Shown here piece after piece: positions 1-4,111 of a DNA stretch of 4,111 nt (position 1 is its first letter; every line of letters begins with the position of its first letter). Under the pieces are notes generated by a model, which saw only the letters and a list, made by a program, of their open reading frames with translations, did no database searches and had not been told where the DNA came from. Source of the stretch: a virus (lineage: Duplodnaviria > Heunggongvirae > Uroviricota > Caudoviricetes). The stretch is from the IMG/VR virus record IMGVR_UViG_2778261572_000015; one strand, given 5' to 3'. Made by a program: the position numbers and the translations under genes.

Positions 1-1011
1 TTATAACGTCACTCCGCCTTTTAGAGGATTCAGCGCGACGGCATTTTGCAGGTAGTCAGGCGCAAGGTGCGCATAGGCCATCGTCTGCTGAATGCTCGCA
101 TGTCCCAGAATCTGTTGCAGTGCGATTATATTGCCCCCATTCATCATGAAATGGCTTGCGAATGTATGCCGCAGGATGTGGGTTGCCTGATTGGGTGGTA
201 TATCTGGCTTCACTCTGCGTAAAATCCCGCAAAACTTCTCATAATCAACTTTGAATAATTTAGCGCTGGCCTCCTCTTTAACTTTTTTCTCCAGTTCCTC
301 AGAAATCGGCACGGTTCGCTTTTTACCGTTTTTGGTTTTCAGGAAGGTAACCCTGCAATTTGTAATCTGTGCTGGTTTTAGCGTGGCAACTTCCGTCCAT
401 CTTCCTCCAGTGCTCAGACATAAAAGTGCGACAAGTAAGTCATCACCATCCAAAACATTTAACAGTTTTTCGATTTCTGCTTTTTCCAGGAACGTCATTT
501 CAGGGTTGGCCTCCGCCAGTGGCGGCAGTCCGTGAATTGGGTGTTGCCCGGAAAATTCATCCAATTGAATTAATTTTGTGAACATGCCGGATAATCGGTA
601 CATGTCACGGTTTATCGTTGCGGCACTGATACCATCACGTAGTCGCATGGAACGATAATCCATCAAAGCTCTTTTGCTCATCCGGCTCACTGGTATATCA
701 CCTATGCCGCTGATGGTTTTGAGCAGATGATTAAACTCTTTTGTTCCATGCTCGTGGTTTTGCCCGTGATATTTCCACCAGATGTTCAGCAACTCACTCA
801 AAGTTCTGCGATCTGCTCGCTGACCTGCCCATTCTTTCTGGCTGGCGTAGGCGATTGTGTATCGCTCAAATGCTACAGCCTCAGCTTTTCTTTCAAATTT
901 CCTGCGGATGCGTTTTCCGTCGCGACCGCGAGGTCTAATGTCCACTTCATAGCGTCCATCATCGAGCTTCTTAATTGACATAAGAAAGCCCTCTGACGCT
1001 GTATTCACCAT
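1..1011 (-). CDS. int: Tyrosine-type site-specific integrase (P2 Int-like). Longest ORF is 336 aa from the ATG at 1011; an alternative in-frame ATG at 981 (MSIKKLDDG..., 326 aa) has a much better Shine-Dalgarno (GAGGG 8 nt upstream).
   Basis: Translation carries the tyrosine recombinase catalytic signature: conserved Arg in LSTGGRWTEV, then HILRHTFASHF and LGHASIQQTMAYAHL (H-x-x-R-H ... Y). Size about 330 aa and position next to a small repressor match P2-type integrases. The window starts exactly at its stop codon (TAA, complement of 1..3). Confidence 0.93.
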   Translation of the reverse strand: MVNTASEGFLMSIKKLDDGRYEVDIRPRGRDGKRIRRKFERKAEAVAFERYTIAYASQKEWAGQRADRRTLSELLNIWWKYHGQNHEHGTKEFNHLLKTISGIGDIPVSRMSKRALMDYRSMRLRDGISAATINRDMYRLSGMFTKLIQLDEFSGQHPIHGLPPLAEANPEMTFLEKAEIEKLLNVLDGDDLLVALLCLSTGGRWTEVATLKPAQITNCRVTFLKTKNGKKRTVPISEELEKKVKEEASAKLFKVDYEKFCGILRRVKPDIPPNQATHILRHTFASHFMMNGGNIIALQQILGHASIQQTMAYAHLAPDYLQNAVALNPLKGGVTL

Positions 1012-1050
1012 CTTGGTAACAAATGGTGAAAATGTAATGTTTATAGAGTG

Positions 1051-1344
1051 TTAACCAGTCTGTTTTTCGGAGTGGTCTGATTCTGTTGGTTTTTGCCCAA
1101 TGTGTGCGAGAGCCGGCGCGATCTGACCAGCTTGTGGTGACGTATCACCAGTCATTAACCAGAGCGTATATTTTTTAAATAAAGGCGTATTTGTGACTCG
1201 CATAACGATGCTGAGACCAGGGTCTTTATGCCCACTTTCGTAATTTTTGACTGTTCCTAGAGCTATCCCGCTAATTTCGCTGAATTTCGCCTGTGTTAAG
1301 CCTTCTGCTTTCCTAATCGCTTTCAGTTTTTCGAATGTCTGCAT
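1051..1344 (-). CDS. C: Phage immunity repressor, P2 C-type (97 aa, small HTH repressor)
   Basis: 97-aa ORF immediately upstream of and co-oriented with int. The N-terminal part has an HTH-like segment (LTQAKFSEISGIALGTVKNYESG). The C-terminal motif KYTLWLMTG...GQIAPALAH matches what I recall of P2-family C repressors. It faces a rightward early promoter, as expected for a switch. Confidence 0.78.
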   Translation of the reverse strand: MQTFEKLKAIRKAEGLTQAKFSEISGIALGTVKNYESGHKDPGLSIVMRVTNTPLFKKYTLWLMTGDTSPQAGQIAPALAHIGQKPTESDHSEKQTG

Positions 1345-1373
1345 TTGACAGTAACCTATTGGTGACTTATATT
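1345..1373 (+). promoter_or_regulatory. Candidate early promoter (Pe-like), sigma70 type: -35 TTGACA (1345-1350), 17-bp spacer, -10 TATATT (1368-1373)
   Basis: Read directly from the sequence: exact consensus -35 hexamer, optimal 17-bp spacer, 4/6 match at -10. It is oriented toward the cox-like operon and begins at the nucleotide after the repressor start codon, so the repressor mRNA must originate further right and read across it (face-to-face arrangement). Confidence 0.55.
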
Positions 1374-1400
1374 CCCGTTAAAAGGTTGTGTATTGGTGAC
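1357..1400. repeat. Two perfect 10-bp direct repeats TATTGGTGAC (1357-1366 and 1391-1400), candidate repressor operator half-sites flanking the -10 element
   Basis: Exact 10/10 direct repeat, centre-to-centre 34 bp. One copy lies in the promoter spacer abutting the -10 hexamer, the other 18 bp downstream of it. P2-type repressors are known to bind direct (not inverted) repeats flanking the -10 of Pe. Confidence 0.45.
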
Positions 1401-1496
1401 CTTTTGAGTGTGTTAGCCAGTCCCTAGAAAGGACAGGTGCGACCTAGAAGGGACTGGATCTAATAAGGGTAACACGAAAGCAAAAAGGGCTAATCA

Positions 1497-1769
1497 ATGG
1501 AAGTCAATGACTATGTGATTCAGTACCCGATTGATGCGGTACATACGGTTAAGTTTGCAGAGTTACTTGGTAAGCCAGAAACGGCTGTAGTCAAGATGGT
1601 AAAAGAGAATAAGTTGCCAGTTATTGAGCTTCGTGATCCAAGTAAGCCGAACGCTCGTGTCGGTGAGAAGTGGGTTTTCATTCCAGAGTTTAATCGCGCT
1701 GTACGAGAGGCGTTTTATAACCGACCAGTTGAACAGCGTGATGCATGGCTTTTGTGGATGGGGTTGTGA
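1497..1769 (+). CDS. cox: Cox-like protein (excisionase / directionality factor and repressor of the lysogenic promoter), 90 aa
   Basis: First gene of the rightward operon, divergent from the repressor. Size (90 aa) and motifs KLPVIELRDP...GEKWVFIPEFN...RP.EQRDAWLLWMGL fit my recollection of P2 Cox. Good RBS (AAGGG, 7 nt upstream of ATG 1497). Confidence 0.68.
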   Translation: MEVNDYVIQYPIDAVHTVKFAELLGKPETAVVKMVKENKLPVIELRDPSKPNARVGEKWVFIPEFNRAVREAFYNRPVEQRDAWLLWMGL

Positions 1770-1771
1770 TT

Positions 1772-1942
1772 ATGAGTGAACCGCGTTGTATTGCTCAGTT
1801 ACTGCGTAACGAAAGCCCCAGGGCGATTGACTTCACCATCACCCACGGTAAGGGGCGTAAGGGAATCATTATCCGCACCAAAAAACAGAGTCCGTTAAAA
1901 AAGGCTCTGACCTTTCTGAAAAGCCGGAGGGTATGGAAATGA
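1772..1942 (+). CDS. Small, highly basic hypothetical protein (56 aa from ATG 1772; the ORF track's longer form starts at 1745 inside cox)
   Basis: ATG at 1772 lies 2 nt after the cox stop (TGA 1767-1769), with a G-rich stretch upstream. The product has about 15 Lys/Arg and 3 acidic residues. It sits where P2 carries a small ORF between cox and B. Function unknown. Confidence 0.5.
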   Translation: MSEPRCIAQLLRNESPRAIDFTITHGKGRKGIIIRTKKQSPLKKALTFLKSRRVWK

Positions 1943-2439
1943 CAGTGATGACGCTCAATCTCGTTGAAAAACAGCCAGCAACTATGCGCCGGATAATTGG
2001 TAAGCATCTGGCCGTCCCTCGCTGGCAGGAGACATGCGATTATTATAATCAGATGATGGAACGTGAACGGCTAACGGTTTGCTTCCATGCGCAGTTAAAA
2101 CAGCGTCACGCAACGATGCGTTTTGAAGAAATGAACGACGTCGAACGTGAACGACTGGTATGTGCAATTGATGAATTGCGTGGGGCATTCTCAAAACGCC
2201 GTCAGGTTGGTGCAAGTGAGTATGCATATATTAGTTTTTTAACAGTCAGTCAGCGTCGCACTTTATTTATGCACGCACGACTGACAGAAAAAGAATTTAA
2301 CCAGCCATACTGGCGAATTAATGAAGAATCATGTTACTGGCGTGATGCTTTATTCCGTGCATTACGTGAATTATTCAGTCTGTTTGAGTATGCACCGACA
2401 ATTCTGACGTCGGTAAAACCAGAGCAATATCTGCATTAA
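1939..2439 (+). CDS. B: gpB-like early replication protein (P2 B is needed for lagging-strand synthesis / DnaB helicase recruitment), 166 aa
   Basis: Assigned by synteny and size only: P2 B is 166 aa as I recall it. The preferred start is ATG 1939 (GGAGG at 1926-1930, 8-nt spacing), which overlaps the upstream stop as ATGA (1939-1942). The ATG at 1933 offered by the ORF track has only a 2-nt spacer. Confidence 0.5.
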   Translation: MTVMTLNLVEKQPATMRRIIGKHLAVPRWQETCDYYNQMMERERLTVCFHAQLKQRHATMRFEEMNDVERERLVCAIDELRGAFSKRRQVGASEYAYISFLTVSQRRTLFMHARLTEKEFNQPYWRINEESCYWRDALFRALRELFSLFEYAPTILTSVKPEQYLH

Positions 2440-2502
2440 GTAATTAACCAGAGTTTTTAACGCACTTAATTGTGCGGGGCTTCTTTTTGCCTGGAGAAAG
2501 TC

Positions 2503-2727
2503 ATGCATACAGTTTCTGAAAATCAGTGCGGTATATACGCATTACTGCTGCAACAGGCCAGAACCGAAGCACAGGCCGACGCTGCGACGCGCTTTTCTTC
2601 TCATCTTGACGCCATGATTCGCCACATCACAAAGGCGGAGTTATCCCGCGTGGAGATAGTCGAGCTGCTCAGTCAGGAGTCGGAAAAATTTCACAATATC
2701 GGATTGTCTCGTGGGGAGGTGCTTTGA
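2503..2727 (+). CDS. Hypothetical small early protein (74 aa from ATG 2503; the ORF track's start at 2470 is a TTG)
   Basis: GGAG at 2493-2496, 6 nt upstream of ATG 2503. Its stop (TGA 2725-2727) overlaps the next start. No motif I recognise. Confidence 0.5.
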
Positions 2728-3029
2728 TGTCCTGTTCTCATTCAGTTGTATTACTGAATAACGCCTTAAAAATCGCCGTTATGGAAAATGGCGATTTGTC
2801 TCTTATTCAACTTGGTCTTGATAAAGAAAAGCGCGACATAACTGAATCTGTTATCGCGATTTATCAGAGCGAATTAAACCTCCTGTCTGATGTGATCAAT
2901 TTACTTGTGAAACGCGCTGTATTTCACAAGCAAATTTCCTCAGTGGATGAACTGACAAAATTAACGACAGAACTCGCCAGCTATTGCGCTGATGAATTTA
3001 AGAAACTGAACGACAAAAGGAACTGGTAA
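2727..3029 (+). CDS. Hypothetical protein, 100 aa, AT-rich coding sequence
   Basis: Start ATG 2727 overlaps the upstream stop (TGATG). GGGAGG at 2714-2719 gives a strong RBS. Its stop (TAA 3027-3029) overlaps the next start. Local GC is about 38-40 percent from my hand count, clearly lower than the flanking genes. Confidence 0.55.
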   Translation: MSCSHSVVLLNNALKIAVMENGDLSLIQLGLDKEKRDITESVIAIYQSELNLLSDVINLLVKRAVFHKQISSVDELTKLTTELASYCADEFKKLNDKRNW

Positions 3030-3253
3030 TGCCGGACAACGTAGATTTCATTCAGGAACAACAGGCTGAATTACTGGAGCGCCAGATTAACGCGGCAAGG
3101 GTAAAACATTGCGGTGCTTCTGCGCTGGTTTGCGAAGAGTGTGACGCGCCAATACCTGCTGCCCGTCGTGCGGCTTATCCGTCAGCCACGCGTTGTGTTT
3201 CCTGTCAGTCAGTCTTTGAAGCAAAAAACAAACATTACCGGAGAACGGCATGA
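3029..3253 (+). CDS. TraR/DksA-family C4 zinc-finger protein (74 aa)
   Basis: C-terminal CEECDAPIPAARRAAYPSATRCVSCQ...KHY carries two CxxC pairs with the PIP-x-x-RR spacing typical of TraR / lambda Orf73-type RNA polymerase secondary-channel binders. Start ATG 3029 overlaps the upstream stop (TAATG). Confidence 0.8.
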   Translation: MPDNVDFIQEQQAELLERQINAARVKHCGASALVCEECDAPIPAARRAAYPSATRCVSCQSVFEAKNKHYRRTA

Positions 3254-3525
3254 GTATTCGTATTGAAATTGGCGAACGTTATGTCGTTACCAGTGACAGC
3301 TTCCAGTTTATTCTCCACGAGAAAAAGAGAGCGGAAAGCGGTAAAAACGCCGGTCAGGAATGGCTGGCGGTGGTTGGTTATTACCCGAAATTAAGCCAGC
3401 TCGTTTCCGGCCTGATGCATCACGATATTCTGACCGGAAGCGCAAAGTCTTTTGCTGATTTAAACGCGCAGGTTGAGCAACTCAGCAAGCGTTGTTCAGA
3501 GGCTTTTGGCTCATATGGCCGTTAA
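3250..3525 (+). CDS. Hypothetical small early protein (91 aa)
   Basis: ATG 3250 overlaps the upstream stop as ATGA (3250-3253). GGAGA lies 5 nt upstream. Its stop (TAA 3523-3525) overlaps the start of the next ORF. No recognisable motif. Confidence 0.5.
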   Translation: MSIRIEIGERYVVTSDSFQFILHEKKRAESGKNAGQEWLAVVGYYPKLSQLVSGLMHHDILTGSAKSFADLNAQVEQLSKRCSEAFGSYGR

Positions 3526-4111
3526 AGCCTCCGGGCGTTTTGTCCCTCCGTCAGCATTTGCTGCAGGCACCGGTAAGGCGTTTACCGGTGCTTATGCATG
3601 GAACGCGCCACGCGAGGCTGTCGAGCGCGAAAGACCCCTTACACGTGACGAGATGCGTCAGGTGCAAGGTGTTTTATCCACGATTAACCGCCTGCCTTAC
3701 TTTTTGCGCTCGCTGTTTACTTCACGCTATGACTACATCCGGCGCAATAAAAGCCCGGTGCACGGGTTTTATTTCCTCACATCCACTTTTCAGCGTCGTT
3801 TATGGCCGCGCATTGAGCGTGTGAATCAGCGCCATGAAATGAACACCGACGCGTCGTTGCTGTTTCTGGCAGAGCGCGACCAGTATGCGCGCCTGCCGGG
3901 GATGAATGACAAGGAGCTGAAAAAGTTTGCCGCCCGAATCTCATCGCAGCTTTTCATGATGTATGAGGAACTCTGCGATGCCTGGGTGGATGCGCATGGC
4001 GAAAAAGAATCGCTGTTTACGGATGAGGCGCAGGCACATCTGTATGGTCATGTTGCTGGCGCTGCACTGAGAGATCCCCTCATAATTTCCCCAAAGCGTA
4101 ACCATGTGTGA
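3515..4111 (+). CDS. A: N-terminal portion of a gpA-like replication initiation protein; the frame closes with TGA at 4109-4111 after about 198 codons (212 in the ORF track, which starts at a TTG at 3473)
   Basis: Last gene of the coupled early operon, at the position of gene A in P2-type genomes. The ATG at 3515 (MAVKASGRFVPP...) is the likely start. P2-family A proteins are roughly 700 aa or more as I recall, so this product is either truncated or a different protein. Identity rests on synteny and recollection of the N-terminal sequence. Confidence 0.45.
   Translation: MAVKASGRFVPPSAFAAGTGKAFTGAYAWNAPREAVERERPLTRDEMRQVQGVLSTINRLPYFLRSLFTSRYDYIRRNKSPVHGFYFLTSTFQRRLWPRIERVNQRHEMNTDASLLFLAERDQYARLPGMNDKELKKFAARISSQLFMMYEELCDAWVDAHGEKESLFTDEAQAHLYGHVAGAALRDPLIISPKRNHV

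Follow-up and report, generated by a model that had tools for sequence, protein, structure and literature searches.

Hairpins are known to set gene expression from within polycistronic messages. The REP sequence between malE and malF as well as the intercistronic hairpins of pap and puf establish differential mRNA stability in their operons. Integrase itself can be placed under post-transcriptional control by a phage RNA hairpin, as in the sib element of lambda, which is located downstream of int, forms a long RNase III substrate and is split from int by integration. In the P2 family the gene order ogr-attP-int-C-cox is common to Wphi (AY135739 / NC_005056) and P2 (AF063097). Since the P2 record annotates the promoter Pc upstream of C and nothing in the spacer between C and int, it is reasonable to propose that int is read from a C-int transcript. 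P2 Int has been cited (PMC11789052, referring to Yu et al. 1994, PMID 8207797) among the viral proteins that bind their own mRNA and thereby autoregulate.

Identity of the window and the start codon of int

The window, i.e. the whole stretch of 4,111 nucleotides that was analysed, is by homology the int-C-cox-B-A early region of a Wphi-type P2-family prophage. Positions 1-4067 share 98-99% identity with Wphi-type P2-family phages (megablast; Salmonella phage STYP1, Escherichia phage 899, Wphi and many prophages), the nucleotide identity with Wphi being 98.5%. The mismatches with Wphi are unevenly spread, with four in int and C (1-1344) and 56 in 1345-4067, which suggests that the int-C module is mosaic or has recently been exchanged. 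The deduced integrase carries the Pfam domains PF24624 (Int_N, 3e-28) and PF00589 (Phage_integrase, 1e-19) and thus possesses a tyrosine recombinase catalytic domain. The C-int spacer comprises 69 nt in the window and 115 nt in P2. The coordinates of the features are compiled in Table 1. The annotations differ in the start of orf78, and one record names this gene 'tail fiber protein'.

At the other end of the window, phage homology stops at 4067-4071, and the final ~45-50 bases (4062-4111) are a 100% match to the end of an IS10-family element; over 1,100 plasmids carry it under the annotation 'IS4-like element ISVsa5 family transposase'. Gene A is therefore interrupted, and the prophage is probably defective.

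Table 1. Features of the int-C region and flanking genes in window coordinates, and the unrelated spacer hairpin of P2
Feature	Position	Strand	Remarks
int CDS	1..981	minus	326 aa, tyrosine recombinase; layout from Wphi annotation
Hairpin over the int translation-initiation region (TIR hairpin)	957..998	minus	outer stem CGUCA/UGAUG; inner GGGCUU(U)CUUA / UAAG AAGCUC; AUG 981 in loop
True int start codon	979..981	minus	from N-terminal homology and annotations
int Shine-Dalgarno GAGGG	989..993	minus	GGAGGG in most relatives; conserved across genera
Spacer hairpin	1004..1030	minus	mRNA 5' arm 1030-1021, loop GUUACCA 1020-1014, 3' arm 1013-1004
Upstream in-frame AUG	1009..1011	minus	codon 1 of 336-aa ORF; incidental, not the int start
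A/U-rich spacer, C stop codon to hairpin	1031..1050	minus	mostly unpaired, mean P(unpaired) 0.65; block highly conserved in alignment A1
Gene C, immunity repressor	1051..1344	minus	ORF and Wphi annotation; upstream cistron of the C-int transcript
cox	1497-1769		Wphi annotation in window coordinates
orf78	1772-1942 (Wphi) or 1745-1942 (phage 899, STYP1, RefSeq E. coli)		start disputed; the longer form overlaps the end of cox
orf78, B, orf80-83	between cox and A		Wphi annotation
A (replication gene)	from 3515		Wphi annotation
P2 spacer hairpin	L204 1216-1250 = AF063097 about 25515-25549		unannotated; followed by an A run, not a U run

The longest open reading frame for int begins with the AUG at 1011, and AUG 981 is its codon 11. 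The sequence-only reading of this region had pointed out that the first AUG opens the 3' arm of an inverted repeat and lacks a Shine-Dalgarno (SD) sequence, and that the second AUG stands behind a strong one. The calculations bear out both observations. Upstream of AUG 1011 the best duplex with the anti-SD sequence reaches +0.5 kcal/mol, and the P(unpaired) is 0.014; the GAGGG element, 7 nt before AUG 981, forms an anti-SD duplex of -6.3 kcal/mol.

For a comparison of int starts we collected 80 loci with relatives of Int from species-representative genomes, from the Enterobacterales and beyond, and read the 110 nt preceding each match. At all 80 loci the relatives align from residue 1 of the 326-aa form, and the 10 extra residues of the 336-aa ORF (MVNTASEGFL) have a counterpart in no homologue aligned. 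The N-terminus of P2-type Int proteins, M[S/A/P/T]IKKLDDGR, directly follows cGGAGGGCTTnnnn-ATG. With M-x-IKKLDDGRYEVD as its N-terminus and a preceding GGAGGG SD, the window Int is a canonical P2-family (Wphi-type) integrase. The same canonical start was seen in Kosakonia, Citrobacter, Yokenella, Serratia, Yersinia, Morganella, Xenorhabdus, Photorhabdus, Rahnella, Erwinia and P2. The int CDS of Wphi begins at the position equivalent to window 981 and P2 Int begins MAIKKLDDGRYEVDI, so that the start site is the same in all three phages. A comparison of annotated starts across P2-family integrases, which had been put forward as a check, gave the same answer: Wphi, phage 899, STYP1 and the RefSeq E. 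coli prophage all use 981, and AUG 1011 is used by no public annotation examined. The earlier suggestion that int really starts at 981 thus agrees with the N-termini of the homologues, with the conserved GGAGGG and with the public annotations alike. On these comparisons, translation of int from AUG 981 behind GAGGG is settled, and was already known. The start of the longest ORF (336 aa) is wrong, which is of little practical consequence; curated and automatic annotations already give 326 aa.

One may ask whether AUG 1011 could be a genuine alternative start that is gated by the stem, so that a 336-aa Int would be made in certain conditions. The triplet shares the reading frame of int, no stop codon intervenes, and it lies inside a stable stem. 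On the other hand, it has no SD, the 10 added residues are matched in no homologue, no examined annotation uses it and, in most related phages, AUA takes the place of AUG though the stem is kept. Among 35 distinct related spacers the triplet is not AUG in 28, and in 21 of these it is AUA through a compensatory change from C-G to U-A, which turns AUGGUG into AUAGUG. Since AUG 1011 just reflects one of the states of a covarying pair and most relatives lack it, the masked alternative start was dropped; we consider it very improbable. The more specific idea that the upstream AUG is a start masked for translational control is likewise not supported, as AUG occurs in just 7 of the 35 spacers and the predicted accessibility of the true SD and AUG stays as it was when the stem is disrupted or restored in silico. 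From the aligned spacers, AUG 1011 is best understood as an accidental triplet that arises from one of two interchangeable pair states (C-G or U-A).

A hairpin in the spacer between C and int

The 7-bp inverted repeat noted at the outset, TCACCAT (1005-1011) and ATGGTGA (1023-1029), is exact, with a gap of 11 nt. The perfect repeat is in fact longer, comprising 8 bp (TTCACCAT at 1004-1011 and ATGGTGAA at 1023-1030). On the minus-strand RNA, two extra inner pairs, one of them U.G, extend it to a stem of 10 bp, closed by a loop of 7 nt. Beginning 21 nt after the C stop codon, the hairpin contains only three G-C pairs and has a minimum free energy of -11.8 kcal/mol (z = -4.3), which was equalled by none of 200 shuffles. 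When the 69-nt spacer was shuffled with its dinucleotides preserved, a perfect 8-bp repeat with a loop of 3-20 nt appeared in 0.98% and a perfect 7-bp repeat in 3.0% of the shuffles. Across the whole window, there are 8 perfect 8-mer inverted-repeat matches vs 1.4 expected.

Conservation was assessed with 35 distinct Wphi-type spacers, obtained as IMG/VR loop-sequence matches and from genome loci (alignment A1). Over the 10 stem pairs, 90.9% of the cells are paired, compared with 40-53% after the 3' partners have been slid. Covariation is seen in one pair, which occurs as C-G in 7 sequences, U-A in 21 and U.G in two, and 500 column shuffles never attained the observed covariation. In neighbour-joining trees built from either flank, the sequences with C-G and those with U-A do not form monophyletic groups. 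Such repeated switches may nevertheless go back to one event, because a gap of only 12 nt separates the arms and recombination would transfer both at once. The stem is not inviolable. Two variants contain an A-A mismatch (L092/L132), further types are weakened (L090, L097, L156, L183), and the Serratia relatives L007, L009, L019 and L190 have kept the 5' arm and the loop and lost the 3' arm. The block TTTATAAACATTACATTTTCAC-ATTTGTTACCAAGA (1014-1050), which covers the 5' part of the spacer, the 5' arm and the loop, is nearly invariant in alignment A1; it is kept even in those Serratia relatives, whose int is just 52-71% identical. Hypervariability is seen in the 10 nt that separate the hairpin from the SD. 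That the 5' arm and loop remain conserved in relatives without the stem hints at a constraint on sequence rather than on structure.

To see whether structure is a general property of this spacer we folded 32 distinct C-int spacers and found no general excess (mean z -0.67); by our own average of the computed z values, the mean is about -0.2 without the four Wphi-class sequences. The P2 spacer is different in that it contains an unrelated 8-bp hairpin rich in G+C, UGGUGGCU-AAAUUUC-AGCCACCA, with a spacer z of -3.9. Fifteen IMG/VR variants that differ from one another in the rest of the spacer all carry this hairpin unchanged. A strong spacer hairpin is thus predicted in two well-known members, Wphi and P2, but it is not family-defining.

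These data have to be weighed against the possibility that the palindrome is functionless, a chance or hitch-hiking repeat in a slowly diverging spacer block, with its paired states derived from one double change that recombination has spread. In favour of this are the natural variants that break the stem, the Serratia relatives that retain the block without the stem, the lack of a family-wide spacer structure, the confinement of covariation to one pair, and the abundance of inverted repeats throughout the window. What speaks for a function is that only about 1% of shuffled spacers hold a perfect 8-bp repeat and that the z value is as low as -4.3. Furthermore, the double change preserves pairing, a U.G intermediate exists, and P2 has an unrelated hairpin that is equally strong and invariant. 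On balance, we regard the absence of any function as unlikely, while taking it seriously. From its folding and its conservation, the spacer hairpin is a real, independently folding and locally conserved element of the bicistronic mRNA. It is annotated in none of the records examined, and the C-int spacer is described nowhere in the full-text literature searched, which did not comprise Yu et al. 1994 (PMC236345) and Liu and Haggard-Ljungquist 1999 (PMC113030). We therefore regard it as a small, lineage-restricted and so far undescribed element of an ordinary kind, with modest comparative support.

A palindrome may equally be read at the level of DNA, and the repeat could represent a binding site for a dimeric host or phage protein with half-sites TTCACCAT spaced 19 bp centre to centre. 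It offers an 8-bp perfect dyad, the compensatory change also preserves DNA symmetry, and the loop and 5' arm are conserved in sequence. The counts of variable non-Watson-Crick cells in the stem (G.U 10 vs A.C 7) favour neither strand and do not prove selection on the RNA strand. However, the inner two pairs, including the invariant U.G, exist only in the mRNA-sense RNA, and the palindrome does not track immunity specificity. The latter point also led us to reject an operator for the C repressor: TGGTGA occurs both in the arms and in the operator repeats TATTGGTGAC, yet L004 combines the identical hairpin with quite different, unrelated operators. Neither does the palindrome resemble the arm-type sites of Int. 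These are ATGTGGAC repeats in the arms of Wphi attP, and the spacer holds no TGTGGAC-type site. We know of no host regulator whose consensus the palindrome fits. A DNA-binding site of this kind therefore retains a slim chance.

The position of the hairpin, between C (needed in quantity) and int (needed sparingly), would also suit a site of transcription attenuation or termination, or of RNase III cleavage as in lambda sib. Rho-independent terminators share with it a stem-loop after a stop codon; the window hairpin, however, has three G-C pairs and no U tract, its 3' arm being followed by AAUACAGCG, and a scan of 900-1520 on both strands detected no terminator-like site. RNase III normally needs about 20 bp or more of nearly continuous double-stranded RNA, and the 10-bp stem provides about half of that. 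The likeness to sib would lie in the control of integrase by a phage RNA hairpin after transcription; the hairpin of the window is short, lies upstream of int and is unaffected by integration. The probability of either a terminator or an RNase III site is next to negligible. Two other roles were tried and rejected. An int-specific promoter has no candidate in the spacer, where the mRNA strand nowhere reaches 8/12 and only a weak antisense match (TTCACC-18-GAAAAT) is present. The hairpin is not a folding insulator or controller of the int translation-initiation region either, given that the predicted accessibility of the SD and of AUG 981 does not respond when either or both arms are complemented in silico. 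Finally, the covariance models of Rfam 15 gave only sub-threshold chance matches in 900-1500, none of them over 957-1030.

We favour the joint reading that int is translated from AUG 981, that AUG 1011 is accidental and that the spacer hairpin is an intercistronic mRNA element, and assign to it a probability of roughly 60%. The hairpin may act as an intercistronic stem-loop on the bicistronic C-int mRNA. It could halt 3'-to-5' exonucleolytic decay and in this way favour the C message over int; alternatively, it could block ribosomes that terminate at C from scanning into int. Either mechanism would hold Int low and uncoupled from C. What was found is a stable stem-loop a short way 3' of the upstream cistron on the same transcript, and the mRNA strand of the spacer holds nothing that resembles a promoter. 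As with intercistronic stability stem-loops, it is located in a polycistronic mRNA just 3' of the cistron that is needed more, and no U tract follows; it is, however, much shorter and weaker (-11.8 kcal/mol) than REP elements, which makes this an analogy only. That the hairpin has some selected function as RNA appears to us slightly short of an even chance, and each of the two specific mechanisms is rated lower. If the hairpin does tune the ratio of C to Int, it would add a detail to how P2-like phages keep integrase low in lysogeny.

A second hairpin over the int translation-initiation region

A further hairpin is predicted only 5 nt 3' of the spacer hairpin, with -17.0 kcal/mol and a z value of -4.0 (957-998). 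It pairs the GGG of the SD with the Leu-6 codon CUC, and the P(unpaired) of this GGG is 0.01. The inner 3' strand (UAAG-AAG-CUC) is made up of codons 3-6 and the outer one (UGAUG) of codons 7-9. An alignment of 30 diverse sequences including P2 (alignment A2) has 87% of the cells paired vs 26-56% in slid registers, and five pairs show compensatory changes. RNAalifold independently predicts the core of the hairpin. One pair occurs across 70 distinct variants as C-G (46), U-A (9), U.G (3) and C.A (4), and in L025/L030 the strands GGGCUU/AAGCUC are swapped for GGGCGC/GCGCUU. Among the non-Watson-Crick cells, there are 75 G.U vs 16 A.C. An additional indication comes from codon usage. In 24 divergent homologues the synonymous sites of int codons 3-14 (940-975) are near-fixed, the commonest codon reaching 0.83-1.0 vs 0.35-0.75 in codons 15-50, and the frozen codons include the non-preferred AAG AAG CUC. 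This pattern fits selection at the RNA level.

The hairpin at 957-998 thus has its SD paired and shows compensatory changes, and P2 has an equivalent. In these respects, namely the buried GGG of the SD, the AUG in the loop and the covariation, it is similar to SD-sequestering or autogenous operators such as the MS2 replicase operator. The spacer hairpin (1004-1030) differs from such operators, as both the true SD (993-989) and the AUG (981) lie outside of it and no effect on either is predicted. The comparative evidence is stronger for the TIR hairpin, which is conserved far more widely and covaries across genera, than for the spacer hairpin. As modelled, the TIR hairpin is plausible as a structural brake on Int synthesis, and it is a candidate for the target of the Int autoregulation that has been reported for P2. 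It gives that 1994 finding a concrete candidate RNA target and is the more interesting lead of the two hairpins. One could go further and imagine an undescribed cis-regulatory RNA module in the C-int leader of P2-like phages, in which the TIR hairpin, conserved with covariation in the Enterobacterales, as core and a lineage-specific spacer hairpin (Wphi, P2) together constitute the operator for Int self-repression, the spacer hairpin being an accessory Int-binding or stabilising element. We hold this extended proposal to be distinctly unlikely.

Sites upstream of C and other repeats

Upstream of C, a sigma-70-like promoter (TTGACA-17-TATATT, 11/12) is located at 1345-1373 on the plus strand. 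It is flanked by two exact direct repeats of TATTGGTGAC, at 1357-1366 and 1391-1400, which are 34 bp apart. By analogy with the P2 annotation, the promoter would correspond to Pe and the repeats to the C operators O1 and O2. Within the region 1417-1457, two 15-nt direct repeats, CCTAGAA[A/G]GGAC[A/T]GG, occupy 1423-1437 and 1443-1457. A 9-bp inverted repeat (CCAGTCCCT/AGGGACTGG) overlaps them, and the decamer AAGGGACTGG is found again in Wphi between the attP core and int (L001 about 537-546). The 15-nt repeats and the decamer are possible Cox boxes. A perfect 10-bp inverted repeat with a 5-nt loop, GCACCGGTAA/TTACCGGTGC, is present at 3567-3591, within the first 80 nt of gene A, and further inverted repeats of the window are found at 2770-2797, 2904-2930 and 3499-3531.
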